Of a stretch of DNA of 45,817 bases, positions 18,721 through 45,817 are shown one piece after another. Each line of letters starts with the position of its first letter. The first letter of the stretch is position 1. The notes below the pieces were generated by a model that did no database searches, was not told the DNA's origin, and worked only from the letters and a program-made list of their open reading frames with translations. Source of the stretch: a virus. Lineage: Duplodnaviria; Caudoviricetes. The stretch is taken from IMG/VR virus record IMGVR_UViG_3300044728_000254, positions 1-45,817 of that record. One strand, written 5' to 3'. A program made the translations under genes and the position numbers.

Positions 18721-18749
18721 ATTATAGATTGACATTCGAATAAGGGCAA
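18721..18749 (-). promoter_or_regulatory. Sigma70-type promoter (leftward)
   Basis: TTGCCC-17 nt-TATAAT. Confidence 0.7.
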
Positions 18750-29989: not shown

Positions 29990-30672
29990 AGAACCTCCCT
30001 GGGCCACTGGCGGACGCCGAGCATATTGCACATCGAACGCCCGGCCTTTGGTCCACTCTCCCCGCCCACGATCACCCAGTCCAGCCCGCGATGATGCTGG
30101 TGGTCGTACCGTTTCTCTGGATCGTGGATATCCCCGCAGCGGCAGCACATCCGAAGATCGGGGCGGGGTCTGAAGCCGCCGTGGTATGGTTTCTCTTTTC
30201 CCTCTAGCCAGTCCAGCCCCTCCTGCGCAGCCTTCAAGTAGTGCCTCCCTCCGGCACACCGTTTCAAGTACTCCCGCATACGCTCCGGCCGCTTGGTGAG
30301 CGCCTGCCAGGTGATCCCGGGCGTGCAGGCGAACATGGCGAACATCTTATCCAGGAACTCGTGGGGCACGCCGGGGTGGAACGTGTCGCTCATGTCGTTG
30401 ACAAACACCATCCACTGCCCGCCGGAGTTGCGGCGGCTGGGGCGGCGACGCCAGCGGAGCGGCTCTGACAGCAGCTCCGGGTGCAACCGGATCTGCCCCG
30501 TCCACCTGGGCCCCGCCCCAGTGTGCTCCGCCACCCCCTTGTACTTGTGGGAAAGTCGCAGGCGGGTGGCCGACAGCCTCTCCGCGTAGCAGTTCCGGCA
30601 CCCTTCGCTCACCCGCGTGCACCCGGTGATGCAGTTGAAGGTGTCGTCGGTCCACTGGATGGAGGCGCTCAT
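29986..30672 (-). CDS. Phage gp37/gp68 (DUF5131) radical-SAM-like protein, internally deleted
   Basis: IQWTD.TFN.ITGCTRVSEGCRNCYA, FVNDMSDTFH, LTKRPERM, DWVIVGGESG present; central and C-terminal blocks absent. Confidence 0.85.
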   Translation of the reverse strand: MSASIQWTDDTFNCITGCTRVSEGCRNCYAERLSATRLRLSHKYKGVAEHTGAGPRWTGQIRLHPELLSEPLRWRRRPSRRNSGGQWMVFVNDMSDTFHPGVPHEFLDKMFAMFACTPGITWQALTKRPERMREYLKRCAGGRHYLKAAQEGLDWLEGKEKPYHGGFRPRPDLRMCCRCGDIHDPEKRYDHQHHRGLDWVIVGGESGPKAGRSMCNMLGVRQWPREVL

Positions 30673-31031
30673 CGCCAGCCTACCTTTTCTGCCCACGTTC
30701 CGGCGACGAGCGCCTCCCGGTTTGCATCGCACCAGGCACGCCACCCTTGGTTCGTTCTGATGGTTTCTTCTTTGGGTTGCTCGGCGAGCAGCTGATAGGA
30801 TGTGCTCTCATAGAAGCCCGACTCGGAACGCTTTTGGCACTTGATGTGTGATGGCGCGGCAGTCGATCGATACACAAAAACCTGTTCGGTCGGCTTCACC
30901 ACGTCGTCGGGCTGGTCCAAGGCATCCCACTCCCCGGTCTTGTGGTTCTTGACCACTCGCAACATGAATGGCGCCCGTCGCAAATCCAGGACGACGCCCT
31001 GCGCTGGTCCGTCCAGAAAGGTGGCGCTCAT
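30669..31031 (-). CDS. Phage hypothetical protein
   Basis: FLDGPAQG..L.L.RAP..LRVV...WDALDQ.DD pattern; ATGA coupling. Confidence 0.7.
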   Translation of the reverse strand: MSATFLDGPAQGVVLDLRRAPFMLRVVKNHKTGEWDALDQPDDVVKPTEQVFVYRSTAAPSHIKCQKRSESGFYESTSYQLLAEQPKEETIRTNQGWRAWCDANREALVAGTWAEKVGWR

Positions 31032-31108
31032 AGTCGCATCCCCACCACCAGACCCAGCAGCACCCACCCGGTCACCCATACAAGCAAAAACGTCTTCGAA
31101 ACCTTCAA
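31028..31108 (-). CDS. 26-aa single-TM microprotein
   Basis: MKVSKTFLLVWVTGWVLLGLVVGMRL; TTGA and ATGA overlaps with both neighbours. Confidence 0.5.
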   Translation of the reverse strand: MKVSKTFLLVWVTGWVLLGLVVGMRL

Positions 31109-31371
31109 TTTATGCTCCTTTTCTGTTCGGCCATGATTTCCTCACCCAGGCGGGTGAGGGCCGCCAGGGCCAGGTTGCGGATCAGGGACACGTCCACGTC
31201 GTTCAGGTCCACCAGCATCAGGCGGAAGGCCATGGCGTCCACGGTGTCGGCCAGCTGGCGCTGCAACAGCTCGATCACCTCCGGCGCGGTCTCCTCCCGC
31301 AGCACGGTCTTGAGAAACGCCCAGGCGTCAGCGCTGTTTTTCATAGGGATGGAGTGGGTGCGCCAACTCAT
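31105..31371 (-). CDS. Hypothetical helical protein
   Basis: 88 aa; GC3-rich codons. Confidence 0.6.
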   Translation of the reverse strand: MSWRTHSIPMKNSADAWAFLKTVLREETAPEVIELLQRQLADTVDAMAFRLMLVDLNDVDVSLIRNLALAALTRLGEEIMAEQKRSIN

Positions 31372-31466
31372 CGTGTACCGCTCAATTCAGCACCGCATCG
31401 GGGTCCGGGCGATCATGCTCACGGATGTGCATGCAGCCCATGTCTCTCCACCATGGCGGCGCCCGA

Positions 31467-32024
31467 TCAGTCGCCTCCGGGATCTTCTTTGCCACGCTCG
31501 GCCTGGACTTCCGCCAGGTGATCTTTGCCCGATAGGAGCGGCTTTCTGGCCGCCTTTGTTTTGCCCTTCTTCGGCGGGGTGAGTCTGGTGAGGGGCGCGG
31601 GCGGCCTCGCGTACTTCTTGTTGTCCGTCCACCGCCCATGCTTGGAGTCCCAATACGGCTTGCCCGCCGGCTGGGGCGGGCGCGACTCGCTCCCGTCACG
31701 GGCCAGGCTTTGCAGGCGCGTCACCGGCTTCTTTGGGGCTGCCTTCTTCTTCGTGGGCTCCTTGACCTTCGGTTTCCCGTCGTAACCGAGGTTCCCCGCT
31801 ATGCGGCACGCCTCCTGGGCTTTATCCACCTCCTCCAGCAGCGCGTCCCGTGCCCCCTCGATCTTGTCCCGCTCGATCTGCGCCTGCAACCAGGTGCGTT
31901 CCCAGAAGGAGCACGACTCCTTCGCCCTCTTGTGAGTCTCCTGGTGATTTTTCAATTGCCAGTCGTTGAAACAATTGCACCCGCACTCCGGGCAGGCGAC
32001 GCGCGTTCTCTGGAAGGGTCTCAT
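31467..32024 (-). CDS. C2H2 zinc-finger protein with coiled coil and basic tail
   Basis: C-x2-C-x12-H-x3-H (CPEC...HQETH); AAAGGAG RBS. Confidence 0.7.
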   Translation of the reverse strand: MRPFQRTRVACPECGCNCFNDWQLKNHQETHKRAKESCSFWERTWLQAQIERDKIEGARDALLEEVDKAQEACRIAGNLGYDGKPKVKEPTKKKAAPKKPVTRLQSLARDGSESRPPQPAGKPYWDSKHGRWTDNKKYARPPAPLTRLTPPKKGKTKAARKPLLSGKDHLAEVQAERGKEDPGGD

Positions 32025-32072
32025 GTTTATCTCCTTTGGGGCATCTCCTCCCCGCGCGGCGCCCGCACGGGG

Positions 32073-32309
32073 TTACTTCGCTTCGAACAGGGGCAGGCGA
32101 TCCTCGGTGGCCGCGGCGATCAGCTCGGCGGTGATCCGCTTGAACCGCTTGCGCAGCCCGGCCAGCTCCTTAGCCTTGTCGCGGATCTCGTCCTGCAGGT
32201 GCTCCATCTCCTTGCCGCAGCGGATCCACGCCGAGCGCTGGCGCTCGTCCGCTGTGTGGCTGTTGGTGTCGATGTGGGTCTTGAAATGCGTCCTGGATGG
32301 CCGGGCCAT
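32073..32309 (-). CDS. Small coiled-coil protein
   Basis: AGGAGG RBS; ends DRLPLFEAK. Confidence 0.7.
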   Translation of the reverse strand: MARPSRTHFKTHIDTNSHTADERQRSAWIRCGKEMEHLQDEIRDKAKELAGLRKRFKRITAELIAAATEDRLPLFEAK

Positions 32310-32317
32310 AAAACCTC

Positions 32318-32833
32318 CTACACCGCCAGCTTGGCGGCGATGATCCTGCGGTACTTGGTCACGGTCGCGTCGCTGAAGCCCACGAGCTGGCTTGCTGCGA
32401 ACGCCGGCAGGATGGGGTCACACACCAGCGTGTCGAGCAGCTCGACCAGGGCCTCCCGATACGCCGCCTTCATCACCTGGCCGTGATTGGCCAAAGGATC
32501 GTCCAGACCCAGCTCCCCCCATATGTCGGACTTGGCCTGTCCTAGAACCATACGCAGGGTTGAATTCCACGGCTCCAGCCACTTGCCGATTCCCTGCTGA
32601 TCGTCCGCGTAGACGTCGGAACGCCCGCAAAGGCGCTCAAGGGGCGATGCGTTCGCGTTTGGCTTTGGCGGTGGCGCGGGAGATGGCGGACTGCTCAACG
32701 GTGGATTCGGTGATGGGCTTTTCTCGGTCGCTCTTGTAGCGGTTGTAGAACTCGATGAGCTTGACGGCGCGACGCCCGTTTCGCTCACCAAGCGACTCAT
32801 GGACTGCGTCGTAAGCCGCGGATTTGTTTGCAT
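32318..32833 (-). CDS. Putative HTH protein (start uncertain, likely shorter)
   Basis: C-terminal AASQLVGFSDATVTKYRR resembles an HTH. Confidence 0.5.
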   Translation of the reverse strand: MQTNPRLTTQSMSRLVSETGVAPSSSSSSTTATRATEKSPSPNPPLSSPPSPAPPPKPNANASPLERLCGRSDVYADDQQGIGKWLEPWNSTLRMVLGQAKSDIWGELGLDDPLANHGQVMKAAYREALVELLDTLVCDPILPAFAASQLVGFSDATVTKYRRIIAAKLAV

Positions 32834-35800
32834 AACTCCGAGTTATACGGATTCCAAAGACCTCTTTCAAGAGCACGGGGATAAATTCTTCCCCGGATTC
32901 TCCGGTCGCCGCCCGGAAGATACGCAGCACCCCCTTGCGGGCGATGGTGGGGACCGGGGCGGACTCCCAGGCAACGTACTTGGCCGCCGACCACGCCGAG
33001 GAGGCGGCGCTGCTGTCGTCGATCACGTCCTGCCCAGTCCATAGGGAGCGGTTGAACATCACCTCCAGGGACGGCTTCACGAACGGCTGGGAGAACAGGA
33101 AGGGCACGCCGACGCCTCCGGGTCCGGTCGCGGTGCGGAAGTCGCTGGCCAAAGGCATGATCCAGCGCATGTCCCAGGTGCGCAGCAGGCCGTCGCTTCC
33201 CCGCCAGGGCATGATCGGCTGGAAGTAGCGATCGATCGACCCCTGCACAAAACCCAGCGGGCCCTTGGGACTGCGCTGGCGGTCGGTGTCCAGGATGGTC
33301 ATCTCCTCGTCGGTGACCCCGAGCATGATCTTGCTGGCGAAGTTGAGGATGCCGGGGACAGCGTACAGGGCCATGACCCGCATGGGATGCTCCCGGGCGG
33401 CCTTGATGGTGATCTTCACCATCTGATCGGGGAAGGCGATGAAGGGGTCGCCGATGGGGCTCTTGCGCAGCTTCTTGGCCCACTTCCCTAAGCGATCGTA
33501 GTTTTGGGTGTAGCGCAGCTGCTCGATGGCCCAGGCGTGGGGCAGGCCGCGCATTTCCGTGTCGCGGATGTAGCTGGCCACCTTGGTGACGTCGTCGATG
33601 AAGGAGTAGCCGGCGGAGAGGGCTCGGTTGAGGCGCTTCAGGCCGGCGTACAGCTGGGCCACGGCCCCGCTGATGGTGTTTTTGGGGTTGGAGAGGAAGG
33701 CCAAGTACTTGGAAACATCGTCGCGGTCCCACCCACCGGTCAGCTCGTTGGACTTCATCAGCCGGGCGATGGTGGGGTTGTTGATCCCCTCCTTGATCCG
33801 TTTGGCGGCGTCCACGAACGTGCTGCGGTGGGTGAGGGGGTTGAGCCCCAGGTAAATCCAGATCGCGTTCTGCCCCAGCAGGTTGTTCATCCAGGTCTTG
33901 GCCGAGTACAGCACCGTCGCGGCCTTGAAGATGTTCAGAAAGATGTCCCACACCTGGGAGAGGACGCCGGTCATGACCTGCTCCTCCTGCATCAGGTTGT
34001 ACCAGACCGCCTCGGGCACATAGAGATTGGCCAGCTCGCCCAGGGCCTCGGAGTCCTTCACCCGCACGTAATGGAAGCGGTCCTCCTCGGGCAGTTCGAG
34101 ATATTCTTCCTGGGATAGCCCCACGGTTGTGGCCAGCTGGTGAAACAGCTCCATGTGCGACAGGTTGGTGGCCATGTCCACGATCGAGCGGGTGAGCAGG
34201 ACGCGAAGATCCCGCACCGGCCCCAGGTGCTCGACGGTGTCGGCGCCAATGGGGGCCATGACGATCACCTTCTGCAGGATGGACTGCCCGTACTTCTCCC
34301 GTCCCGCCTCCCGCTCCCGCTCCATGCGTTCGAACGCGGCGTCGGAATCCGGGGTCTGCCAGATATCCCCGTTCGCCAGGCGGACGCTCCACAGCTCCTC
34401 GTCCGATCGTTTGAATTTGAACATGCCCATCTTGATCCGCGGGCCGGCCAAACGGTTTTCTACGGACCGGATCAGCTTAGGCTGCTGCATCATGTGGTAC
34501 AGCCGGCGGACGTAGGCTCCGCCTTTCGACTGCCGCAGCTTCACGATCTCCTCGAAGTTCACCAGGCCGCCGGCCTTGGCCTGCACCAGGAGATGCGGGC
34601 GATTGAGCAGATGGTCGGTGAGGGTGTCCATCACCTCTTTGTAGTTGTCGAACCAGGCCTGCATGGCCGGGGTGAGACTGTAGTAATCCGACTTGCCTCG
34701 CAGCACGTCCTCGATCGCCTGGTGCTCGGTGAGGGCGGCGACGTCGAAGGCCTCGTCCGCGTCCCAGGTCCCGACGGTCTCCTTCTGCAGGTCCATGAGC
34801 CGCTTGCCAAGATCCTGGCGGCGGTCCTGTCGCTGGAAGGGTTTGATCTCCTCCTCGTACACTTTGCGCATGTCCGCCGGCAGGGTCTCGGCCCTGGTCT
34901 CCCCGTCGATCACGGAGTCCATCAGCCGCCAGGCGGATTTGGGCCAGGGCTTGCCCTCGTGTTTCTTGCGTACCGCGGCCACGTGGCGGTTGAGTCGCTC
35001 GTTGAGATTTCGTGCCACCTCGGTGTGGTAGCGTTTCATGCCCCGGGCCCACTGGAACAGATCCCGCTCCGGGGCGGCCAGCTTCCACTCCGCGTCGTAC
35101 AGCCCGCGGCCGAAAAAGTCGCTGCGTCTCTGCCCCTCGACGGTCTTCATGTTCTTGAGCCGGCCTACGATGCGATCCCATTGGCGGCCGTACTCCGCCT
35201 GGGCCCGCTCCATGATCCCGGTGGGGTCGGGGATGGCCGCTTGCGTGGCGCCCATACCAAACAGGGGCTCGTGCCAGTGCTCCCGCATCCAGCCCCGTTG
35301 CTCCGGGGTGAGGTGGTCGGGGAGCAGGCTTTCCTTGGTGGGCGGAAAGCCGGGCAGGTCGGAGGCCCCGCCGCCGGCGGTACCGGGTTCGTTGCCGTCT
35401 TCGTCCTCCTCCTTGCCGTCGTCCTGGGCGGCGTGCCCCTGGGCCTGGTTCGCGTTCTTCTCCGCCTCCTTGGCGATCAGGTCGGCCAGCACGCGGACCC
35501 GGCCGGCGATCTCGTCCATCTCCTTCTGCTTGCCGAAGGGCTTGTCCACCGTCTTATCGATCTCGGTCAGCTCCTCCTTGAGGGCGGCCAGGCGGCGAGT
35601 GAAGGATTCCGGGGCGATGTCGTCCAGCTCGTGGGCGAAGGTGGTGATCCAGTGGCGCATCGCCCCTTCCGTGGGGTTGGCCGCAGCGTCCCAGGCCAGC
35701 CAGTTGCCCAGGCGGATCCCGGCCTGGTCCAGGAACTTCTGCAGGTCGCCCTTGTCCGGGGGCAGGACCACGGAGACCAGGGCCTTCAGGTTGCGATCGC

Positions 35801-38800
35801 CCCAGGAGACCATGTACTGCAGGTTCACCGCCAGGCCGCGGTATTGTCCCACCTTGCGCTTGTCCGTGTCGTTCATGCGTTTGGTGATGTCGAACAACGC
35901 CTTGCCCGCGTCGGTGTGCTTCTCATAGGTGGTGTTGCCGATGTCCATAAGGAACGGGCTCGCCGGCGGGAGGGTGGCGGCCCACTCCTGGAACTTCTTC
36001 GCCTTGGGGATCAGCTCAGAAACCCGCTTGATCTCCGCCTTGGTGTGCACCTGCTGGTTGCGCAGCTTCATCTGCGCGTCGCGGTGGTACCGGCTCTCAC
36101 CCTGCAGGCGGTTGAGGTTGTGCGACAGCGTGGTCCACTCCAGAACCGCCTTGTTCTCCGAGCCCGCGGCCATGGCCATTTCGAACGCCAGGGTCTCGGT
36201 GTCCACGTCCTCGATCTCGTCGGCGTCGAGCTTGCCCGACAGAAACTCTGTGTTGGTCTTGTGCTTGGCGGCCAGCAGGGAGTACATGAACTCGTCGGCC
36301 ATGCCCTTGGCCACGTAGCGGTACAACTTCACCTCTTTGTTGCGGTTGCCCGAGCGGATGCTGCGGCCCCGCACCTGCTCCAGCGTGCCCGGCTCCCAGG
36401 CGGCCTCCAGCTCGTGGGAGGCGATGACCCGCTCCTGCACATTGACTCCCTGCCCCATCTTCTTCATCGAGCCCAGCAGGATGCGGATTTCTCCGGCGTT
36501 GACCCGATCGAACAGGGCGGCTTTCTGAGCGTCGTTCTTCGCGTCGTAGATGGTGGCGATCTCGTCGCGATCCACCCCGCCGTCCACCAGCTTCTTGATC
36601 ATGGCGTCGTAGGTGGAAAACATCGTCTTCTTTCCCGGCGCCCCCTGGTTGATGAACACCAGCTGGGTGAGGCGATCGGCGGCCGTCTCTTTGTGGATCC
36701 GCACGATGTTGTTGGCCGCCGACGTCAGTTTGTTCCCCGGCTCCTCGGGGTTGTTGGGGTACAGCAGGCGCATGTCCAGGGAGGCCTTCTTCTCGTCGGT
36801 GATGACGCTGAGGATGATGTCGTCGCCGGGCTGGGGCGGCTTGCCCCCTCTGGCCTTGATCGCTTCGCGGCGCTGGCGGATGACCTTCTGGTAGGCCTTC
36901 TGGCCCGGGGTGACCTCCAGGGCCACCACTTCGTAGCTGCGCTTGCCTTCGCTGTTCTCCGCCACGACGGGGATATCCCCGCCGGCCTCCTGCACCACCC
37001 GCACCACTTCCTCGTGGGGCGCCACGTGGGTGATCTTGTCCCACAGACCGTACAGCCCGCTGAGGTTCATGAACTTCCGCAGGCGGGTGACCATCTTGTA
37101 TTCCTGGGCGACGTTCTCCAGCTTGGGGGCGGCCACCGCAAACATACGCACCCAGTCGTCGAAGGAGGCGATGCCCTGGGCCTTGAGCACATCTGGCTGC
37201 AGGTAGCGCTGCATGGTGTAGATTTCGCTGATGGAGTTGTTCACTGGCGTGCCAGTGAAGAAGGTGAGCCCTCGCCCATTCTGCAACCGGCTGACAAACC
37301 GGGCCTTCATGTACAAGTCCAGGGTGATCTGGTTGCCGGCGGGGTTGCCCAGGCCGCGGACGTTCTCGATCTGCGTGGCGAACTGCAGGTTCTTCACCTT
37401 GTGGGCTTCGTCGTACATGATCCAGTCGATGCCCAACTCCTCGAAGGGCAGGGACGCGGTCTTCTTGGTCTGCTCCACTTTCTCCTTCAGGCGGGCCAGC
37501 AGGTTGTCGCGGGCGGCCTCCATCTTCTTCACCGACCGCTGGCTGGCCTTGCTGGCGTCGGCCTCGGCGATGGCGTCCTCCATGTCCTTGATCATTTCTC
37601 CGTAGAACTCGGTGAGGGTCGCTTCCGAGACGGGCAGCATGGTGAACTGCTGGTGGGGGATGACGAACACGGTTTTTTCGGCGATGGCCACCTTGGCCAA
37701 CGTCTTCGCCCGCATCATGCCGCTCAGGTCGTTGGTGGAGATGGCCACGAACTGGGCGCCGGGGTAGAGCGTGCGGGCGCTCTTGATGAACTGGTTGAGC
37801 GTGGCTCGATCGACCACGATGGCCACCTTGCGGGCCAGGCCCAGGCGGATCGCCTCCATGGCCGCGGCCGTGGCCGTGTACGTCTTCCCCCCGCCCACCG
37901 CGGTGTAGATCAGCGTGTTGTAGGGGCTGGACAGAACGCGGCTGACGCCGTCCTTCTGGTACCCGCGAAGCTTGATCGCCGGATTGGAGCCCGGCAGGGA
38001 GAGGTGCGAGCCGTCGTACTTCTTGGGCACCCAGCTGTTGAACGTGTCGTTGTACTCGCGAAGCAGCTGCGGTCCCCACTTGGGATGGGCCCACACCCAG
38101 GTCTCGAAATGGGCTTTGATCTCCTCCAGCTTACTCTTGGCCGCGTCACTGGCCGGCGTGTCCAGGTACCGGCTGCCGTCGGCGTTCCTGCGCAACACCT
38201 TGGGGGTCTTCATGTTCAGCTCGTCGTCGAGCAGCTCGGCGGTGTTGTAATCGGGCGTGCCCCAGGTCTCCTGGCTCGCAGCGGTTCCCCCCGCACCGGA
38301 GGCGGCCACAGTCCATCGCCCGGTCGCGCTCGAGCGTCGAATGCTGATCGAGCGGCGGTTGCCGATCATGGAGGCCAGGAATTCCTCCAGCAGCTTGGCG
38401 GGGATCCACGGGGCGCCGATCGCCGTGCGGATCCGGGACGCGGGCAGGTCCGCGGGCTGGGCGGCTTTGAGGGCCTCGACGTTGCGGGCGTACTGCTTGG
38501 CATCGGCCTTGGCCAGGGCCTCGGCTTCCTTCAGCTTCTCACGCACGTTGCCGCTCAGGTAGTCGGCCGTGGCCACGATCTCATCGCCAGGCAGGGGGAA
38601 GGCCAGACCCTCGTTGATCAGGCGGACGCGGGCCGCGGCGGCGTCGATGCCCAGCAGCTCGCCGATGCGCTCCAGGTCGATCTGGGCGCTTTCGTCCAGG
38701 CTGATGTTCAGGGCGTCGCCGGTGGTCTCCGCGGCGGTGGGCCGCTGGTAGGCGTCGAGCATGCGGCGGGTGAAGTACTCGCTCTTTTCCGCCTTGCGCG

Positions 38801-41800
38801 TCTTGGGGTCGTACTTTTCCAGCTGGGTGAGCAGCGAGAGGGTGAACACGTCGCTTTCCAGCAGGGTGGTGTTCTGGTTGCTATGCAGGGGGGTGAGCTT
38901 GGCCCGGGCCATGGCGTCGTATTTCCGGTTCAGCTCCTTCTGCAGCTCCGGCAGCCGGGTATCGCCTTTGGGGTCGATCGAGGCGCGAAGCAGCTCCTGC
39001 ATGGTGGTGCGCAGATCCACCATGGCCTTCAATCGCTTGATGGCCGTCTCCCCCTCCTCGGCCCGGATGATGGACTCGACGTTGGTGGCCGCGTCGCCGC
39101 GCCGCCCCGCCTGGCGCAGGGTCCCGTCCTCGCTGGTGAAGAAGGCTCCGGGCGGCAGGTTCTTGGGACTGGGCACCATGTCCATCACGTCGTCGATGCG
39201 CGTGAGGGCTTCGGCCCGCTTGCCGAAGATATCTGCGGGCAGATGGGCTAGTGCGGCGTTCAGGTCCTTGGCCAGGTCGAAGTTGGGCGGGGCCTCGACG
39301 ATCGTTTCGGTGGGTCCTTCTTCCCCGGCGCTGTACAGGCTTCCCGCTTTGATCTCGCCCAGCACCATTTCCGGGCGGTTCTGGAAATACTCGTTGATCA
39401 CCTTGCCGGGCAGGGGCTCGTAGGGGCGGCTGTTGACCCAGGCCTCTCCGCCGGCGGGCTCGTCCTTGCCCCGCTTCTTCAGAAAGATGATGTCGGTGGT
39501 GACTTTGGTACCGGGGAGGGAGTCTTCGTTGAGTCGCACCGCTCCGACCAGGTCGGCCCGCTCGGCGATGTACACGCGGAACCGAGCATCCAGCTTATCC
39601 ATCGTCCCCTTGGTGGTGATAAAGGCAACCAGTCCGCCGGGGCGGACCAGATCCAGGGATCGTACAAAAAAGTAGTCGTGAATGAACTGCCGCAGCCACT
39701 TGGGATAGCGTTTGTCATGGATGAACAGGTCTCCAAAGGGAACGTTGCTCACCGCCAGGTCGAAGTAGTTTTTGGGAAGGGCCGCTTCCTCAAATGGTGT
39801 GTGCTCCACCATCGACGCGGGGTACAACGCCTTGGCGATCGCCGCGGTGATGTTGTCCTTCTCGATCAGGGCCCGCTGCGAGTTGTTGGCCAGGTGCACG
39901 GGCTGCAGTCCGAACCAGTGCCCCACACCGCCCGATGGTTCCAGCACCTTGCCCCCGCGGAACCCCATCTTGTGCAGGGCCTCCCACACGCCGGTGACGA
40001 TCGCCGGCGGGGTGTACATGGCGTTCTTGGTGGAGCTGCTGGCCGCCTTCCACTCCTCGGATGTGAGCAGCTCATCCAGCTCGGCGAATTCTTTCTGCCA
40101 GCCCTTGTCGTTGCTGTAGCGGTTGCGGCCGTCGAAGGGCTCAGGCACCGAGCCCCACCCCTGGTAGCGCGACAGGATGGCCCGCTCCTCCTGCGTGGCG
40201 GCCCGTTCGCGGCCCTCCTCCTTCAGCTTCTTCGCCAGGCGGATCGCGTCTACGTTGCGTCGGAAGATGGTTTTGGATGGGTTTTTGCCGGCGGCGAACA
40301 GGTTGGCGGGGTCGCTGATGACGTAGTCGGTGACGCCGGCCTTGTCGATCGAGTGGTCGATGGAGGCGGGCGTGGTTGGCGGTTGTTCTGCTGGAGCTTC
40401 CGCACCCGCTTCTCCTGCACCGCGTAAAACCGATGGCACTTGCTGCTCATTTACAGCTCCGGCGGCGGATCTACCGCCAGCACGTCGATCAGCTTCTCGA
40501 CGTGTGTCCAGAGGGTCCATGTCGCCAGTGTTTGCCGCCGGCTGGCCCCCTTCGCGTTCGCTTGATCCAGCAGAGGCTGCAGGCTCGCCAGTGCGTTTCT
40601 CAGGGTTTTGGTTGCGTTGCCTATTTGCTTCGGCTCGCCCATCTCCTGCTGTGCCTGTTCGAATGTTACCGCCATCGTCTACTCCTCCTCGTTCGCCGGC
40701 GGGGGCACGTGGATGTACTCGCTGGCCACGGTCTCGTACGCCTGGTCCGCCGGCATCCCCTGCTCGATCAGCTGCCCCAGGCGGTCTTTCGCCTTCCGCT
40801 GCAGGTCCCAGGCCCACAGGTGCAACGTCCCCGCGGCCTCCATCTCCCTCAAGAATCCCGCGTTGACGTCCCGGGCCACCCGGATCGCTTCGAGTCCCAT
40901 CGGGCCCAGTCGCTCCTTGGCTTCCTGGTCGGTCTTCGGCGGCGCCGGTTTGTCGCTCATCGGTTTCTGCTTTCTGCTTTATGCTTTCCGCTTTCTCAAT
41001 TATAGCGGGTTTTTCGGCGTTACTCAAGGACTGCAACTGCTGCTCGATCCGGTCCATCAGGTCGCCGGCTTCGTTCAGTCGTTCGCTGGATTTCAGGAAC
41101 TCATCGTCGCCGATGCGCTTCGCTCGATACTGCGCCGTCACAGCCAGGTGGCGGGAACTCTCGGTGCGAAATTGTTCCAGGGCCTTGTTGTACAGGGCTT
41201 GCAGTTTCCCGCGTTCGCTCTGCGTCTTCTGCCCGGCGACGATCTGCGCGTCCGATGGGGGGCGGACCACTTCCTCCTTGCCCCCGAATATGGGCTTGAT
41301 GATCAGGTCGCCGGCGGGTTGCTTAGGAGCTGCTCCGCGCTCGCGTCCGCCGTCGTCGGCTCGCCCGGGTTTCCCAATGGGGCCAGCTGGGCGATCCGCC
41401 TCCGCCGGAACTTCTCCTCGTCGTAGGTCAGCTTCACGCTCTGCCGCAGGAGCTGCTGCTGGGCTGGGTCCTCCACCTCCCGTCTCACGTACCGCCCGTT
41501 CTTTCTCTCCAACAGGGCTAATCGTCTCGCCTGCCGGTCCTCCCGTTTCAGCTTTCGTTCCGATCGTCTCACCGGGGGTCTCCTTCTTCTTGTTGGCCAA
41601 ACGGGCAGCCTCGGCCTCCGCGGCCGTGGGGAACACGTATCGATCGACATACAGCTGCGTGCCGTAGGTGAAGCTGTGTCGTTTTCCGTCGGCGGTCTCG
41701 ATGGTTGTAGCAGACCCGTCAGGGCGATTGCCGATAACCTTCTGTACCGTCTCCTCTGGTCCACCTTCCCCGCTGGCCAGCCCCTTGATGACGTCTCCGC

Positions 41801-44189
41801 TTCGCAGCTCCTCGGCGTCCAGCTTCACCCGCTTAGTGTCCGTAATTGCTGGCGGCTTCGGCCCTTCTGGCGTTTTTGAATAATCCGGCGGAATAGAATC
41901 CGGAATAATCTGCGCTGGTTTTTCAACTTCTGGGGCGACGTTAGGCTCATCAATGATTAGGGGCGGACGTGCACCAAAGAGTGAAGCCTGGGCCACGCGT
42001 TTGACGTCTTCCACGCTATGAATCTGCCCGGCGTCATAGGCCGCCTTGACGGCTTGATCCTCTGGGCTCTGGTACTTGCCCGGGGACGGCAGCTTGCCCT
42101 TCTGCAGGCGGTCGAAGATGGAGACATACAGGCCCTCGGCGATGCCTTTGCCTATGTCACCCACCCCTTGTGAAATGTCCTCTACCGGGTTGCCGTCCGA
42201 TAAGGTTTCTTCTGTGTCGCTCGCACTTGTGGATGTTCCACGTGGAACCACCACCAGTTGTGTCCCCTCATGCGGAAACGGTTCCGACGGCTTTGTAACA
42301 ACCTGCTGAGTTGGCCCTAGTTGGGATGAGTTAGTACCAGTTGCCATGAGTTGGTCGAGCTTCTCCTGGAAGTCCGGTCCCAGGGGCTGGCTCGGCGTGG
42401 CGTTCGGAAAGTGCATGTTGGGCTGGTCGGGGATGTCCGCTTCGCCGGGTCCCGGAGGCTGTTGTGCTGGTCGTGGAAACTCCCGCGACTCCGGCACCAG
42501 GGCGGAGGCTCCCAGGGTGACCGCTCCGGGGATGAGGAACCCGGCGAACTCCGCCGTAAGTTGCCCGCCGGTCGGAGCTTGGAAGTTACGTAAGGCGCTC
42601 TTATCCCCGCCGCGTTCGATGACCGCCTTGGCGGCGGCCTCCATCAGCTCGGCAACGCGCTCTTCCCCGATCTCCTCAAACGGCTGGTTGTAGCCCACCT
42701 CTCGCAGATGATGCCAGGCGGCCTGCATGGTCGCGTACTTGTTCGGAAATCGTTCGACCAGATCGGCGGCGATCGATGCCCGCGTGGCCGCCATCCACTC
42801 GGCGGCTTTCTCCGCCGGCACGCCGATGACCCGGACGCCGGGCAGGTGGGCGCCCGCTCGACCCAGGGCCGCTCCGGCCTTCCCCACCTTGCTGACCAGG
42901 TGACCGACCGCCTTGCCGGTGTACTCGCTGTACACCTGGATGGTCGCGTTGATGCCGGAATCACGCAGGGCGCCCAGGAAGGGCTGTCCGGGCGTCTTGA
43001 TCGCCCCTTCGATCACTTCGTCGTCGCCAGGCCTCAGCTCGAAGCCTGGGAGGGTTCTACGTAGCGTGTCGGCCGTGGTGGCCACGGCGATGTTGGGCAG
43101 TCCGCGTTGGGCGGTTTCCACTCCGGCTTTCGCCAGGGTCGAGACGATGCCCTTCTCCGTGGCTTTGCCGGCCATCTTCCGCATGGCCGAGACCGCGGCG
43201 GCGCTGGCCTCCTTACCCACCAGCTTGCCGGCGATCTTCTCGGCGCCTTTCACGCCGGCGCGGGTGATCGCTCCGCCGGTGGCCAGCTCGCCCATGAATG
43301 GGACGCTCTGGCTGGGGATCTTGGCCACCATGCCGCCCCAGGTTGTGCCGCGGCTTTCCTTGGCCATGCGCTCCTGCAGCTGGGTGAGGGTTTCGAAGTC
43401 GGCCATCGTTCCCTCGCCGCGGGTAACGCGGCCCAGGGCCCGGTGCACCTTGACCAGCTCGACCGCGGTGAGGGCCGACTCCATGTAGGGGAGCTTTTCG
43501 AGCAGGCCGCGGGGCGTCTTCCATTCCTCCTGCATGACGTCGCCGAAGCCGGCGGGCCGGGGGAGTGCGTCAAGTGCCTCAAGGCCGTACCGGCGGCGGA
43601 ACACGTTGGTGAAACGGAGCTTCGCTTGGTCGCTTTGCAGGTTGGCGAATCCCGGATGCTCCCGGGCCTCCAGCTCCGCCTGGGCGGCGAAGGAGCGCTC
43701 GGCAACTTCCTCCTCGGGCGTCTTGGGAACGATAGCCCGGCCTAGTTTACTCAGGGTCCGTCGAATCAGGCCGGGGCGATCTTCCCGCGGCCCTACCGAT
43801 GGCATTCCGCCTGGACTAGTTCCTGCCTGGGCCGGCGGCCAGGCGGCCATGGGACCGGGCGGGGGTGCGGACTGGAGTGAGTCCGCAGAAATCCCCGTCG
43901 CTGGTCCACGTCCAAAGAATCCGTCTCGCAGTTGATCGAAGCTGCGCCCCATCGGCGTGTCGATGGCCAGGGGCGGGCGGCCGCCGTAATCGGCGGGTGG
44001 TGCACCGTGCTGGTGCATGGTGGTGCGATCTGCACCGTGCTGGTGCATGGTGGTGCGATCTGCACCGTGCTGGTGCATGGTGGTGCGATCTGCACCGTTC
44101 GGATGCGGGGTGTCGATGAGTAGCGGGGGGCGCTGCCCGTAGTCGCGGGCGACCGTATCCGCGGCGAGATCATCCAGGGGATTGGGCAC
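32637..44189 (-). CDS. Giant polyvalent virion protein with DarB-like N6-adenine methyltransferase and SNF2-type helicase
   Basis: 3850 aa; VLEPSGGVG and SNVPFG (about 39730-39950), AVGGGKT (about 37885), DEAH (about 37405), TGTP, GRSIRSGN (about 36355); ejection-protein-like N- and C-terminal regions. Confidence 0.9.
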   Translation of the reverse strand: MPNPLDDLAADTVARDYGQRPPLLIDTPHPNGADRTTMHQHGADRTTMHQHGADRTTMHQHGAPPADYGGRPPLAIDTPMGRSFDQLRDGFFGRGPATGISADSLQSAPPPGPMAAWPPAQAGTSPGGMPSVGPREDRPGLIRRTLSKLGRAIVPKTPEEEVAERSFAAQAELEAREHPGFANLQSDQAKLRFTNVFRRRYGLEALDALPRPAGFGDVMQEEWKTPRGLLEKLPYMESALTAVELVKVHRALGRVTRGEGTMADFETLTQLQERMAKESRGTTWGGMVAKIPSQSVPFMGELATGGAITRAGVKGAEKIAGKLVGKEASAAAVSAMRKMAGKATEKGIVSTLAKAGVETAQRGLPNIAVATTADTLRRTLPGFELRPGDDEVIEGAIKTPGQPFLGALRDSGINATIQVYSEYTGKAVGHLVSKVGKAGAALGRAGAHLPGVRVIGVPAEKAAEWMAATRASIAADLVERFPNKYATMQAAWHHLREVGYNQPFEEIGEERVAELMEAAAKAVIERGGDKSALRNFQAPTGGQLTAEFAGFLIPGAVTLGASALVPESREFPRPAQQPPGPGEADIPDQPNMHFPNATPSQPLGPDFQEKLDQLMATGTNSSQLGPTQQVVTKPSEPFPHEGTQLVVVPRGTSTSASDTEETLSDGNPVEDISQGVGDIGKGIAEGLYVSIFDRLQKGKLPSPGKYQSPEDQAVKAAYDAGQIHSVEDVKRVAQASLFGARPPLIIDEPNVAPEVEKPAQIIPDSIPPDYSKTPEGPKPPAITDTKRVKLDAEELRSGDVIKGLASGEGGPEETVQKVIGNRPDGSATTIETADGKRHSFTYGTQLYVDRYVFPTAAEAEAARLANKKKETPGETIGTKAETGGPAGETISPVGEKERAVRETGGGGPSPAAAPAAEREADLRRGEVPAEADRPAGPIGKPGRADDGGRERGAAPKQPAGDLIIKPIFGGKEEVVRPPSDAQIVAGQKTQSERGKLQALYNKALEQFRTESSRHLAVTAQYRAKRIGDDEFLKSSERLNEAGDLMDRIEQQLQSLSNAEKPAIIEKAESIKQKAETDERQTGAAEDRPGSQGATGPDGTRSDPGGPGRQRGILEGDGGRGDVAPVGLGPAAEGERPPGAADRAGDAGGPGVRDRGQRVHPRAPAGERGGVDDGGNIRTGTAGDGRAEANRQRNQNPEKRTGEPAASAGSSEREGGQPAANTGDMDPLDTRREADRRAGGRSAAGAVNEQQVPSVLRGAGEAGAEAPAEQPPTTPASIDHSIDKAGVTDYVISDPANLFAAGKNPSKTIFRRNVDAIRLAKKLKEEGRERAATQEERAILSRYQGWGSVPEPFDGRNRYSNDKGWQKEFAELDELLTSEEWKAASSSTKNAMYTPPAIVTGVWEALHKMGFRGGKVLEPSGGVGHWFGLQPVHLANNSQRALIEKDNITAAIAKALYPASMVEHTPFEEAALPKNYFDLAVSNVPFGDLFIHDKRYPKWLRQFIHDYFFVRSLDLVRPGGLVAFITTKGTMDKLDARFRVYIAERADLVGAVRLNEDSLPGTKVTTDIIFLKKRGKDEPAGGEAWVNSRPYEPLPGKVINEYFQNRPEMVLGEIKAGSLYSAGEEGPTETIVEAPPNFDLAKDLNAALAHLPADIFGKRAEALTRIDDVMDMVPSPKNLPPGAFFTSEDGTLRQAGRRGDAATNVESIIRAEEGETAIKRLKAMVDLRTTMQELLRASIDPKGDTRLPELQKELNRKYDAMARAKLTPLHSNQNTTLLESDVFTLSLLTQLEKYDPKTRKAEKSEYFTRRMLDAYQRPTAAETTGDALNISLDESAQIDLERIGELLGIDAAAARVRLINEGLAFPLPGDEIVATADYLSGNVREKLKEAEALAKADAKQYARNVEALKAAQPADLPASRIRTAIGAPWIPAKLLEEFLASMIGNRRSISIRRSSATGRWTVAASGAGGTAASQETWGTPDYNTAELLDDELNMKTPKVLRRNADGSRYLDTPASDAAKSKLEEIKAHFETWVWAHPKWGPQLLREYNDTFNSWVPKKYDGSHLSLPGSNPAIKLRGYQKDGVSRVLSSPYNTLIYTAVGGGKTYTATAAAMEAIRLGLARKVAIVVDRATLNQFIKSARTLYPGAQFVAISTNDLSGMMRAKTLAKVAIAEKTVFVIPHQQFTMLPVSEATLTEFYGEMIKDMEDAIAEADASKASQRSVKKMEAARDNLLARLKEKVEQTKKTASLPFEELGIDWIMYDEAHKVKNLQFATQIENVRGLGNPAGNQITLDLYMKARFVSRLQNGRGLTFFTGTPVNNSISEIYTMQRYLQPDVLKAQGIASFDDWVRMFAVAAPKLENVAQEYKMVTRLRKFMNLSGLYGLWDKITHVAPHEEVVRVVQEAGGDIPVVAENSEGKRSYEVVALEVTPGQKAYQKVIRQRREAIKARGGKPPQPGDDIILSVITDEKKASLDMRLLYPNNPEEPGNKLTSAANNIVRIHKETAADRLTQLVFINQGAPGKKTMFSTYDAMIKKLVDGGVDRDEIATIYDAKNDAQKAALFDRVNAGEIRILLGSMKKMGQGVNVQERVIASHELEAAWEPGTLEQVRGRSIRSGNRNKEVKLYRYVAKGMADEFMYSLLAAKHKTNTEFLSGKLDADEIEDVDTETLAFEMAMAAGSENKAVLEWTTLSHNLNRLQGESRYHRDAQMKLRNQQVHTKAEIKRVSELIPKAKKFQEWAATLPPASPFLMDIGNTTYEKHTDAGKALFDITKRMNDTDKRKVGQYRGLAVNLQYMVSWGDRNLKALVSVVLPPDKGDLQKFLDQAGIRLGNWLAWDAAANPTEGAMRHWITTFAHELDDIAPESFTRRLAALKEELTEIDKTVDKPFGKQKEMDEIAGRVRVLADLIAKEAEKNANQAQGHAAQDDGKEEDEDGNEPGTAGGGASDLPGFPPTKESLLPDHLTPEQRGWMREHWHEPLFGMGATQAAIPDPTGIMERAQAEYGRQWDRIVGRLKNMKTVEGQRRSDFFGRGLYDAEWKLAAPERDLFQWARGMKRYHTEVARNLNERLNRHVAAVRKKHEGKPWPKSAWRLMDSVIDGETRAETLPADMRKVYEEEIKPFQRQDRRQDLGKRLMDLQKETVGTWDADEAFDVAALTEHQAIEDVLRGKSDYYSLTPAMQAWFDNYKEVMDTLTDHLLNRPHLLVQAKAGGLVNFEEIVKLRQSKGGAYVRRLYHMMQQPKLIRSVENRLAGPRIKMGMFKFKRSDEELWSVRLANGDIWQTPDSDAAFERMEREREAGREKYGQSILQKVIVMAPIGADTVEHLGPVRDLRVLLTRSIVDMATNLSHMELFHQLATTVGLSQEEYLELPEEDRFHYVRVKDSEALGELANLYVPEAVWYNLMQEEQVMTGVLSQVWDIFLNIFKAATVLYSAKTWMNNLLGQNAIWIYLGLNPLTHRSTFVDAAKRIKEGINNPTIARLMKSNELTGGWDRDDVSKYLAFLSNPKNTISGAVAQLYAGLKRLNRALSAGYSFIDDVTKVASYIRDTEMRGLPHAWAIEQLRYTQNYDRLGKWAKKLRKSPIGDPFIAFPDQMVKITIKAAREHPMRVMALYAVPGILNFASKIMLGVTDEEMTILDTDRQRSPKGPLGFVQGSIDRYFQPIMPWRGSDGLLRTWDMRWIMPLASDFRTATGPGGVGVPFLFSQPFVKPSLEVMFNRSLWTGQDVIDDSSAASSAWSAAKYVAWESAPVPTIARKGVLRIFRAATGESGEEFIPVLLKEVFGIRITRSYANKSAAYDAVHESLGERNGRRAVKLIEFYNRYKSDREKPITESTVEQSAISRATAKAKRERIAP
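40451..40675 (-). CDS. Nested (+1 frame) helical protein, 74 aa
   Basis: GGAGGAG RBS; amphipathic helices while the outer frame reads as low-complexity linker. Confidence 0.65.
   Translation of the reverse strand: MAVTFEQAQQEMGEPKQIGNATKTLRNALASLQPLLDQANAKGASRRQTLATWTLWTHVEKLIDVLAVDPPPEL
40679..40960 (-). CDS. Nested (+1 frame) TnpV-like protein, 93 aa
   Basis: LG.MG...GFLREM..AGTL...AKDRL.QLIEQ...AYETV..EYI.V parallels TnpV pattern G.YG...L...G.L...A.ERL...AEEIV..ELI; own promoter. Confidence 0.7.
   Translation of the reverse strand: MSDKPAPPKTDQEAKERLGPMGLEAIRVARDVNAGFLREMEAAGTLHLWAWDLQRKAKDRLGQLIEQGMPADQAYETVASEYIHVPPPANEEE
40999..41027 (-). promoter_or_regulatory. Intragenic sigma70-type promoter
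   Basis: TTGAGT-17 nt-TATAAT, 38 nt upstream of nested ATG at 40960. Confidence 0.8.
41303..41572 (-). CDS. Nested (+1 frame) basic protein, 89 aa
   Basis: AAGGAG 7 nt before GTG; MRRSERKLKREDRQARRLALLERKNG... Confidence 0.55.
   Translation of the reverse strand: MRRSERKLKREDRQARRLALLERKNGRYVRREVEDPAQQQLLRQSVKLTYDEEKFRRRRIAQLAPLGNPGEPTTADASAEQLLSNPPAT
42234..42249. promoter_or_regulatory. parS-like palindrome
   Basis: TGTTCCACGTGGAACC; 14-bp perfect palindrome, 15/16 to TGTTCCACGTGGAACA. Confidence 0.65.
44001..44098. repeat. Perfect 30-bp tandem repeat x3.3
   Basis: TGCACCGTGCTGGTGCATGGTGGTGCGATC; encodes HGADRTTMHQ. Confidence 0.95.
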
Positions 44190-44194
44190 GGGGG

Positions 44195-45505
44195 TTATCC
44201 TCCACCGCGTCCGCGCTGTGCGTCAAGTTCCTCGGGATCCATGAGCAGCCCGAGGTACTCATTGGCCGCCTGCTGCGCCTGCTTGACGCGCTGGGCCTTG
44301 TGGTCGGGGCTTTCCTCGCCCAGCAGAAATTCCCGGCCCGTCTTCTTCCAGCTGCTCAGGGCCGGCGGATCGAACTTGCCGGCGGCGTAGGCCGCCCGCA
44401 CCTCGTCGGGGGTTTTGTAGGGCGCCCGGCCCTTGATCGCCTGGCGAAGCAGTTTTCGCTCGGCCGGGCTGGCGGTGGCCATCTGGCTTTGGATGTAGCT
44501 GGCGTACTTCTTGAACTGGCCCACCGCGTCGGTCTGCCACTCCGGGGCGTTGGCCAGGCCTTCGCCCAGGACGCTCCCGCCCATGCGCTTGTTGAACTCG
44601 CCCTTATCCAGCAGGGAGGCGTCCTTCTCCGGGGTCCGCTTCGCGTCCGCGAGCGTGGCCATGATGTCCGTGGGGCTCTTGCCCTGTCCCTTCTGCTCGG
44701 CGATCGCTTCGGCGGTGAGGGCGTTCATGGGGTTGTCGGATCCGGCGCCCGCTCCGCCCTTTCGGGCCAGGGACGCCTTGGCCAGGGCGTCGAGGGGATC
44801 GCCCGATTTCGCATACGCCTGGTCGAAGGCCTGCTTGAAGGCCTCCTCCTCGGGGTTCAAGGCCTGCTTCTGATTAAGGCTGGCGTCGCGGTACCGCTTG
44901 GTCTCGACCTCTGCCCGATCGGCCCGGGCATTGTCTGCATTCCGGTCTTCGCGGGTGAGCTGGAATTGCCGATCAAACCGCGACTCCTGCTGGGCATAAT
45001 GGGCCTGCTGCTGCTCGTTCTGCACCGTCTTCACGTATTGCTGATACCCCTGGTCGAGCAGGCGCAGCTCCCGTTTGCTGGCGTAGGGCTTTCCGGCCAG
45101 ATTGGGCATGAACTTGGCCGCCCACTCCGGGGGGCTCAGTAGACGTGGCCCTGCTGAGACTCCCGGAGTGTACGCTGTCGCGTCCGCGGGGGCATTGGCA
45201 GGCATGTTGCCATACCCCCCCATCGCTACGGGTTCATTTTGGGTCGGGGGCATACTGGCGGGGCTTGGGGCTCCCGCCGGCGTCCCGGATGGAGGTAGAC
45301 TATTGGGGGTTGGCGGTCCCGCGGCCATCAGGCGCTGGCGATACATGGCGTCGCGTTCCCGGGCCACGCTCTGCATGGCCAGCTGGCGCATGGGGGTTTC
45401 GCCGGCCACGTCGGTAATGAAGCCGCTGCCCGGCGGGGGCAAATAGCTTTCCCGCGGGGTGAGGTCCATCATGCCCGGCGGCGCCATGGTGGTGGGCGGC
45501 ATCAA
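44195..45505 (-). CDS. Internal virion / ejection protein
   Basis: 436 aa, Pro/Met-rich N-terminus, Q/A/E/K helical body; directly upstream of giant gene. Confidence 0.65.
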   Translation of the reverse strand: MMPPTTMAPPGMMDLTPRESYLPPPGSGFITDVAGETPMRQLAMQSVARERDAMYRQRLMAAGPPTPNSLPPSGTPAGAPSPASMPPTQNEPVAMGGYGNMPANAPADATAYTPGVSAGPRLLSPPEWAAKFMPNLAGKPYASKRELRLLDQGYQQYVKTVQNEQQQAHYAQQESRFDRQFQLTREDRNADNARADRAEVETKRYRDASLNQKQALNPEEEAFKQAFDQAYAKSGDPLDALAKASLARKGGAGAGSDNPMNALTAEAIAEQKGQGKSPTDIMATLADAKRTPEKDASLLDKGEFNKRMGGSVLGEGLANAPEWQTDAVGQFKKYASYIQSQMATASPAERKLLRQAIKGRAPYKTPDEVRAAYAAGKFDPPALSSWKKTGREFLLGEESPDHKAQRVKQAQQAANEYLGLLMDPEELDAQRGRGGG

Positions 45506-45817
45506 TACTGGCTCCGGTTGGGTGACATGCCCATGCCCATGCCGCCGTACTGGTCGAACATCGGGGTTCCGCCGCCTCCGGCCTGCATGGCCGCCTGGTA
45601 GTACGGGTTGGGGTTGGTGGGCAGAAACTCGGTGGAGAAGTCCATCAGGGTTCCGCCCAGGGCCGTGCCGCCCGATCCGTCGTTGCCCATGGCGGTGTCG
45701 ATGGCTCCGCCGGCGGACGCTCCCAGGGCCGAGCCGATCCCGGCGCCGGCCAGCATGGACATGCCGCCGGTGGGCGCTGCGAGCAGGGCTCCGATACCCG
45801 CTCCGGCCGCTCCTCCG
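45502..45817 (-). CDS. Partial glycine-zipper DNA-pilot/ejection protein (5' end off the right edge)
   Basis: GGAAGAGIGALLAAPTGGMSMLAGAGIGSALGASAGG; frame open to window end. Confidence 0.7.
   Translation of the reverse strand, partial: GGAAGAGIGALLAAPTGGMSMLAGAGIGSALGASAGGAIDTAMGNDGSGGTALGGTLMDFSTEFLPTNPNPYYQAAMQAGGGGTPMFDQYGGMGMGMSPNRSQY

Follow-up and report, generated by a model that had tools for sequence, protein, structure and literature searches.

A conserved TnpV-like gene nested out of frame inside the giant DarB-type gene of a tailed phage

In this study, we examine a 45,817-base record from a tailed phage (IMG/VR record IMGVR_UViG_3300044728_000254, positions 1 to 45,817; hereafter the window), whose major head, portal and terminase genes lie on the minus strand, and in particular its giant polyvalent gene of the DarB type (32637..44189, minus strand; 3850 amino acids (aa) by open reading frame call). 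Inside this gene, in the +1 frame and just ahead of the methyltransferase domain, lies ORF1 (40679..40960, minus strand), an open reading frame (ORF) of 93 aa that we regard with high confidence, close to certainty, as a real gene. It encodes an acidic five-helix TnpV-like protein, and such a gene accompanies DarB-type enzymes in phages, plasmids and bacterial genomes, also where the giant virion half is missing. We propose, giving the idea about an even chance, that this conserved nested gene makes a small protein, likely from its own host-polymerase promoter after DNA entry, that is predicted to bind the methylase-helicase half of the giant protein and restrain it.

ORF1 bears a coding signal of its own. 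Its G+C content at third codon positions (GC3) is 0.93 in the nested frame. Over ORF1 and the ORF downstream of it, ORF2, the outer-frame GC3 drops from about 0.9 to 0.38-0.47 and first-position G+C content (GC1) climbs to 0.80-0.88, as for a gene whose codons start one base later. A codon log-likelihood model (log units per codon), with the giant gene's helicase half as its training set, prefers the nested frame for ORF1 (+0.97) and ORF2 (+0.60), the top two among the 17 +1 ORFs of at least 40 aa in the giant gene, so that the frame-specific codon analysis suggested in a first-pass annotation of this DNA comes out in favor of both. That annotation, made from the sequence alone, had placed three ORFs here, all offset by +1 (40679-40960, 40451-40675 and 40250-40450), and its coordinates are right; as genes, ORF1 holds up, ORF2 is probable and ORF3 is doubtful, and a fourth, ORF4, had been missed. 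The +1 frame is open in just 3 of 216 93-codon windows across the giant gene's ordinary half. Contigs carrying the stretch from two runs (labelled soil metagenome, a possible source) show 0 differences, a comparison that is not independent, and an assembly artefact is an unlikely cause of the nested ORFs.

The relationship to TnpV emerges through a chain of profiles. One homologue of ORF1 is 67% identical to it, and the homologue in the window's closest relative, locus L168 (70% identity in the methyltransferase), is 47% identical. A two-sequence ORF1 profile finds 22 representatives at E<=0.001, and a profile built without ORF1 recovers ORF1 at E=0.011, then at 3.2e-8 after one round. The same profile collects L026, L053, L082, L012 and L069, all past the Pfam cut-off for TnpV (PF14198), and by this sequence link ORF1 is a distant TnpV relative. 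Across the family, PF14198 matches at E<=0.05 in 65 of 82 aligned members (best 2e-44); when TnpV-like ORFs were tested singly, 7 of 11 cleared the cut-off, with nested-frame matches of up to 150 bits. Searching directly for loci with any one of ORF1, its homologue in L168 and the window's methyltransferase as query returned none, and ORF1, ORF2 and ORF4 are likewise without a tblastn match among cultured phages. Atlas scores (0.88 for ORF1, 0.78 for ORF2) serve as leads only.

The family was surveyed in 240 loci picked by their methyltransferase alone (80 viral, 80 metagenome, 80 genome), with a first profile of eight nested proteins from cultured phages; later rounds contain the viral loci themselves, and the metagenome and genome loci stand outside the profile. 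The first-round profile gives 59 matches in the 80 viral loci, every one in frame +1. In the full survey, a nested +1 TnpV-like ORF lies upstream of the methyltransferase in 79/80 viral loci (counting L017, a doubtful, low-complexity match), 63/80 metagenome loci and 62/80 genome loci, or 204/240. The remaining 36 comprise 21 that run off the fetched DNA, 10 that are closed without a match and five with a match outside the outer ORF. Conversely, a search by the nested protein placed it inside a methyltransferase-bearing ORF in 74 of 76 loci, the other two being cut by contig ends. Furthermore, minimal enzymes with a mere 130-190 aa leader still nest the gene.

Cultured phages show the same arrangement. 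Among 120 phage records matching the methyltransferase region, ten were examined, drawn from the 60 that were listed, and all ten hold a GC3-rich +1 ORF just ahead of the methyltransferase; eight of these ORFs form one family, that of Gervaise is marginal (E=0.003) and that of 8P weak (E=0.05). The 8P ORF sits in the usual slot (L004:2690-2962) with GC3 0.84 and is either very divergent or a different protein. The first-pass annotation had expected gene callers to miss nested genes, and indeed in 21/21 phage records the annotation over the family match gives the giant gene only. Shine-Dalgarno (SD) matches of at least 5 bases precede 58 of 79 nested starts against 108 of 3287 control ATGs, a comparison that is biased because starts were chosen by SD.

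In all 17 pairs compared, which are hand-picked and not independent, the nested frame is more identical than the outer frame over the same alignment columns, and variation is greatest at the third position of the nested codons. On this comparative evidence, selection acts on both frames, mainly the nested one, and because the nested frame is the more conserved, the outer linker looks like an overprint, with the nested gene the older. An absence of homologues and of conservation in the +1 frame, named beforehand as what would speak against nested genes, is thus not what is seen for ORF1. The first-pass annotation had also reasoned that GC3-rich coding leaves the -1 frame free of stops. This fits the window, in whose giant gene the -1 frame is open in 149/216 windows, but it is insufficient as a general explanation, because AT-rich loci, down to 30% GC, nest the gene too and few outer frames would be open by chance (8.3 expected among 112 non-redundant loci; the third frame is open in 0/112). 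Since these 112 loci were selected as nested, the fair count is that of all loci with a match, in which the outer frame is open across the match in 204/209.

Other layouts also occur. Acaryochloris pREC3 carries an annotated TnpV gene directly ahead of an SNF2 gene, with an 8-base overlap and the -1 frame closed, a tandem, non-nested arrangement; in five further plasmids, TnpV is nested in two, weakly in one and absent from two. In PBC5 (L009, AF448724.1 orf33), the TnpV-like ORF shares the frame of the giant gene's N-terminal half and a separate gene encodes the methylase-helicase, a layout unlike that of the related Atu_ph08 that reflects either a sequencing error or a real frameshift. The top viral fold match is a 1093-aa half chain whose length would fit the PBC5 protein.

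A sigma-70-type promoter-like site, TTGAGT-17-TATAAT (40999..41027, minus strand), lies 38 bases ahead of ORF1 and reads as LSNAEKPAII in the outer frame, just where the first-pass annotation had seen it. The match by itself is not above chance (1 found against 1.6 +/- 1.3 in shuffles of positions 30000-45817), so the case rests on conservation in L168, which keeps TTGCGT-17-TATAAT ahead of its ORF1, and on enrichment in relatives, where 7 of 62 loci (the window included) have a site of at least 10/12 no more than 200 bases from the nested start, against 22 of 1803 control windows (Fisher p 3e-5; rows not independent). These two lines make a putative promoter ahead of ORF1 likely, though the match alone would not. 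The whole window has three sites of 10/12; the other two, also on the minus strand, are at 18749 and 22095, one of them with TATAAT.

How might such a protein act? P1 DarB is packaged in the virion, acts in cis on entry and protects from type I restriction, according to the available text of PMC5512222 and PMC9024508, and the DarB-like gp69 of phage JC1 is reported from virions (PMC9144972, available text). By analogy, the giant protein would be packaged and injected and would act without expression, while the nested gene, behind a host-type promoter, would act only after phage DNA has entered. The ORF1 protein may then switch the enzyme off or redirect it once incoming DNA is protected, during the production of new copies; we take such a role as the most likely one because packaged DarB acts on entry and the nested gene only afterwards. 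Because the family stays tied to a single enzyme in phages and bacterial elements alike, a dedicated methylase-helicase partner is the more likely identity of the ORF1 protein. As for its origin, the arrangement may have started as a two-gene unit, a tnpV-like gene followed by a methylase-helicase gene, in which the enzyme gained N-terminal extensions via read-through of the -1 frame. The R/G/A/D-rich linker would be a by-product of the older nested gene, and in this lineage the tolerant linker could also house exchangeable small genes (the ORF2 slot and ORF4).

Several observations weigh against this proposal. ORF1 has an SD match of 3 bases only and falls under the PF14198 cut-off (12.2 bits, E=0.19, against 27), as do P0001 (21.9) and the L168 homologue (21.2). 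No promoter-like site of any kind is found in 19 of the 62 upstream windows. The upstream region is closed, with no match, in 10 of the 240 loci, and the TnpV-like ORF is absent from P1 darB and from one Rhodococcus and one Sinorhizobium plasmid, which implies that some enzymes of this kind do without the gene. In Faecalibacterium-family genomes, Pfam TnpV is free-standing in 10 of 16 scored, with the -1 frame closed, which allows a function independent of the enzyme; it is nested in 6/16, with the methyltransferase in view for four. Moreover, an activator would fit the sequence data as well as an inhibitor. Mutual information between 113 paired rows of the ORF1 family and the enzyme shows no signal beyond that of shuffled pairing (maximum z 6.1, against 5.3-7.2), and the distance correlation of 0.79 in the paired rows comes from physical linkage only.

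The other nested ORFs show how far the window departs from a single nested gene. ORF2 (40451..40675, minus strand; 74 aa) is preceded by the SD sequence GAGGAGGAG (40682..40690, minus strand), a 6-base match within the last codons of ORF1 that bears out the ribosome site noted earlier, and its single-sequence model is a helical hairpin of moderate confidence (predicted local distance difference test (pLDDT) 76, predicted template modelling score 0.48). ORF4 (41303..41572, minus strand; 89 aa), upstream of the promoter-like site, encodes a basic protein from a GTG start 7 bases past AAGGAG, a 6-base SD match; its outer GC3 is 0.47 and GC1 0.92, its codon phase is +0.62, and the G+C shift falls at aa 901-960. 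Neither ORF2 nor ORF4 has a match in a large protein search, which covered near lengths only, and for ORF4 no homologue appears beyond L168; both are probably genes. ORF3 (40250..40450, minus strand; 66 aa) is doubtful as a gene, with a 4-base SD match and an overall preference for the outer frame (-0.60): its first 24 codons follow the nested phase (+1.14), and the rest, which overlies conserved outer sequence, is outer-coded (-1.59).

Comparison with L168 points to exchange at these positions. The ORF2 slot of L168 is occupied by an ORF of 78 aa (GC3 0.86, strong SD) that is unrelated to ORF2 (z score -0.1), and the ATG right behind that gene shares 9 of 19 N-terminal residues with ORF3 (z 4.1 versus 1.6 for the outer frame). 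The ORF4 homologue (L168:2890-3246; 45% identity over 71 aa, against 31% for the outer frame in the same columns) is found across a shared domain from where ORF4 lies in the window. L168 also has four tandem copies of a 9-base unit (L168:4570-4600), which stand between its ORF1 and the gene in the ORF2 slot; the length of the unit preserves both frames. A codon-phase scan of 161 loci, which skipped those offering less than 1.8 kb of gene downstream, turned up 17 more nested ORFs, spread over 15 loci, compared with 5 in a 685-kb control; only the window and L168 have two such ORFs each, and they alone have one between the TnpV-like gene and the methyltransferase. The ORF2 slot and ORF4 are probably extra, exchangeable small genes of accessory type.

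These data invite an alternative that we consider rather unlikely for the unit as a whole, namely that the nested ORFs form an accessory cassette expressed early and directed at the host, by anti-defence or takeover, independently of the giant protein, for which the linker is merely a convenient place. The cassette's own promoter-like site is in keeping with it, as are the differing ORF2 slot and the shifted ORF4, since accessory genes behave in this way; free-standing tnpV genes exist, and PF14198 is recorded in 16 of 24 MOBQ2 mobilizable elements (PMC12084326, available text). Against it, the ORF1 family keeps its frame and its side of the same enzyme in the 204 loci counted above, a fixed partnership unusual for accessory genes, and where a member is not nested it adjoins the enzyme directly upstream; no defence-related Pfam or PHROG match was found, PADLOC lying outside the search. 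The first-pass annotation had likewise proposed an embedded anti-defence or takeover cassette. Taken as a new arrival, this is a poor description of ORF1, an old companion of the enzyme, because the companionship is near constant and extends to enzymes without the giant virion half and to AT-rich loci; it may hold for ORF2 and ORF4. The MOBQ2 counts, together with the report of mobilizable elements with tnpV whose insertion site is snf2 of Streptococcus integrative and conjugative elements (PMC9815147, available text), fit action of TnpV in trans on the enzyme, but they fit the rival explanations too.

An improbable alternative is that the TnpV-like protein assists recombination or transfer, its link to the enzyme reflecting shared inheritance only. 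TnpV of Tn4451 has been postulated to aid excision by its likeness to lambda Xis (PMC3158075), and a role in transfer has been suggested in mobilizable elements (PMC12084326), as far as the available text of the two papers goes. The predicted structure argues otherwise: ORF1 is modelled as a confident, acidic, all-helical five-helix bundle (pLDDT 89), and the family's median net charge is -3. No Xis structure is among the fold matches listed, an absence that would not decide the matter by itself. In tailed phages, moreover, the gene goes with the methylase-helicase and not with an integrase. The best fold match of 48,161 chains is 2APL, the DUF1896 protein PG0816 of Porphyromonas gingivalis (PF08989), at Z 6.6, root-mean-square deviation 2.1 over 62 residues and 8% identity, a Z below 8 being one that can reflect a common helical arrangement. 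Foldseek returns nothing at E<=0.001 with the ORF1 model, and it lists 2APL at E=4.2; a sequence profile lists DUF1896 at E=0.18, and PF08989 has no match at E<=0.05 among the 82 aligned members. DUF1896 genes, we presume, sit beside Bacteroidota methylase-helicases.

We assign a similarly low probability to the possibility that the promoter mainly expresses a separate methylase-helicase half, the small ORFs serving as leaders or translational couplers. The promoter does point into the methylase, ORF3 starts right at the ORF2 stop in the window and in L168 and then enters LPD36, and the tandem layout of Acaryochloris offers a parallel. However, the three outer-frame starts between 41000 and 40200 have SD matches of at most 3 bases, the only start in L168 with a 5-base SD falls inside the domain, no shared slippery run was found in ORF3 by eye, and the ORF1 protein sequence is itself under selection. 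No start for such a half was found, and the suggestion in the first-pass annotation that it could be transcribed separately gains no support. Finally, an origin of the +1 ORFs by chance, as shadows of a low-complexity linker, is very improbable; it applies in part to ORF3 and is in keeping with the chance-level promoter match, but is ruled out for ORF1 by family-level homology, the nested-frame Pfam matches and frame-specific selection.

The outer protein itself is a recognizable DarB-type enzyme whose gene stands in a virion-gene neighborhood. PHROG 10089 (DarB-like antirestriction) matches aa 1181-2925 at E=0, and the protein shares 46.5% identity with that of L168 across aa 1-3223. The LPD36 and adenine methyltransferase region (aa about 1290-1600; 39390..40322, minus strand) carries the motifs GWGS, YTPP, EPSGG and NVPF at aa 1342-1485, in line with the domain descriptions in the available text of PMC5512222: GWGS, within YQGWGS at aa 1342 and ahead of the methyltransferase, corresponds to the GXGU of LPD36, and YTPP (1392), EPSGG (1415) and NVPF (1482) to the TP and NPP(Y/F) of adenine methyltransferases, NVPF being the majority form among 113 relatives. 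Pfam N6_Mtase reaches only E=0.057 on the protein. The helicase core (aa 2072-2614; 36348..37976, minus strand) matches Pfam ResIII above its cut-off, with GGGKT at 2099 and DEAH at 2260, and SNF2 and Helicase_C under theirs; Pfam, PHROG and motifs together identify a fused superfamily 2 helicase of the SWI2/SNF2 type. At the N-terminus, the translation shows three near-identical copies of an HGADRTTMHQ-like 10-residue unit (aa 34-63, window about 44030-43990).

Other features of the giant genes deserve mention. A 42-base AT-rich stretch (41891..41932, minus strand; EKPAQIIPDSI in the outer frame) is 93% identical by blastn to L168 3286-3327, while its flanks show no alignment. A short +1 ORF (42 aa from a start at 41953; phase +0.29) overlaps the stretch, which is possibly a DNA site. 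Of 204 loci, 32 (for example, L180, L183, L185, L188, L224, L232, L236, L063 and L200) carry the motif QL[DSENG]LF in the outer frame in the 60 aa preceding the nested gene, and the roughly 304,000 residues downstream contain none; the window has QASLF at aa 734. The available text of bioRxiv 2025.01.04.631326 names QLDLF as the consensus for binding the sliding clamp, and the resemblance suggests that the enzyme may be tethered to the clamp through its linker. A second nested +1 family lies 2-2.8 kb upstream of the methyltransferase in Pavtok-like phages (L002:158-388, L013:2944-3162, L015:2410-2622, L008:956-1135), with L013 and L015 36% identical and a Gervaise ORF similar by eye only. A third consists of small nested +1 ORFs with an SD (L036/L038:3316-3513, L046:3373-3540, L076:3820-4002; mutual identity 44-59%). 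A 209-aa +1-frame ORF inside the giant gene at L048:3661-4290 looks, to our eye, like an HNH endonuclease.

TnpV as a transposon protein, DarB dyads and embedded phage genes are already known. ORF1 shares with TnpV of Tn4451-type elements (PF14198) the profile link, and full-length TnpV is nested likewise in Bacillota-type loci; unlike TnpV, ORF1 is shorter, scores below the cut-off and is nested in a phage structural-module gene, and the window is a tailed-phage record, not a Tn4451-like mobilizable element. The published role of TnpV is the postulated Xis-like one, and the available text on it leaves the methylase-helicase unmentioned. Likewise, the outer protein resembles the P1 DarB methylase-helicase dyad in its LPD36, N6-adenine methyltransferase, SWI2/SNF2 motifs and PHROG 10089, whereas P1 darB has no long N-terminal half and P1 7.5-19 kb has no TnpV-like ORF. 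Among embedded genes the closest type is Rz/Rz1, whose spanin products work together. Genes of this type, described for the Bcep22-like phage JC1 (PMC9144972, available text), are like ORF1 in that one gene contains the whole of another, the two sharing a strand but not a frame, with both frames kept; here, by contrast, as many as four ORFs with a promoter-like site of their own are nested in a host gene of 3850 codons. The main text of Iyer et al. 2017 (PMC5512222) contains neither 'TnpV' nor 'overlap', and no description of a TnpV-like gene nested in a DarB-type gene was found in the searched literature, with supplements and subscription papers outside it. What the window adds beyond a single nested TnpV gene is the multi-gene cassette.

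We tentatively extend the proposal, at somewhat less than an even chance, to the family at large: DarB-type methylase-helicases may have a hidden regulatory subunit in the TnpV-family proteins, which most of the enzyme genes would encode internally in another frame. The linker would then be a gene hotel, housing in this phage a promoter-driven, exchangeable operon of three to four genes within one virion gene, and the free tnpV of mobilizable elements would act on the enzyme of a helper element. If so, most DarB-type anti-restriction genes of phages and conjugative elements would hide an unannotated second gene, and the 'disordered linker' of DarB-type proteins would be the shadow of it. TnpV, often labelled a transposase or Xis-like factor, would gain a testable role, offering a direct handle on the control of DarB-type enzymes. 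The window would also be a natural example of several genes nested as a unit within a single reading frame, for the study of which cultured phages exist.

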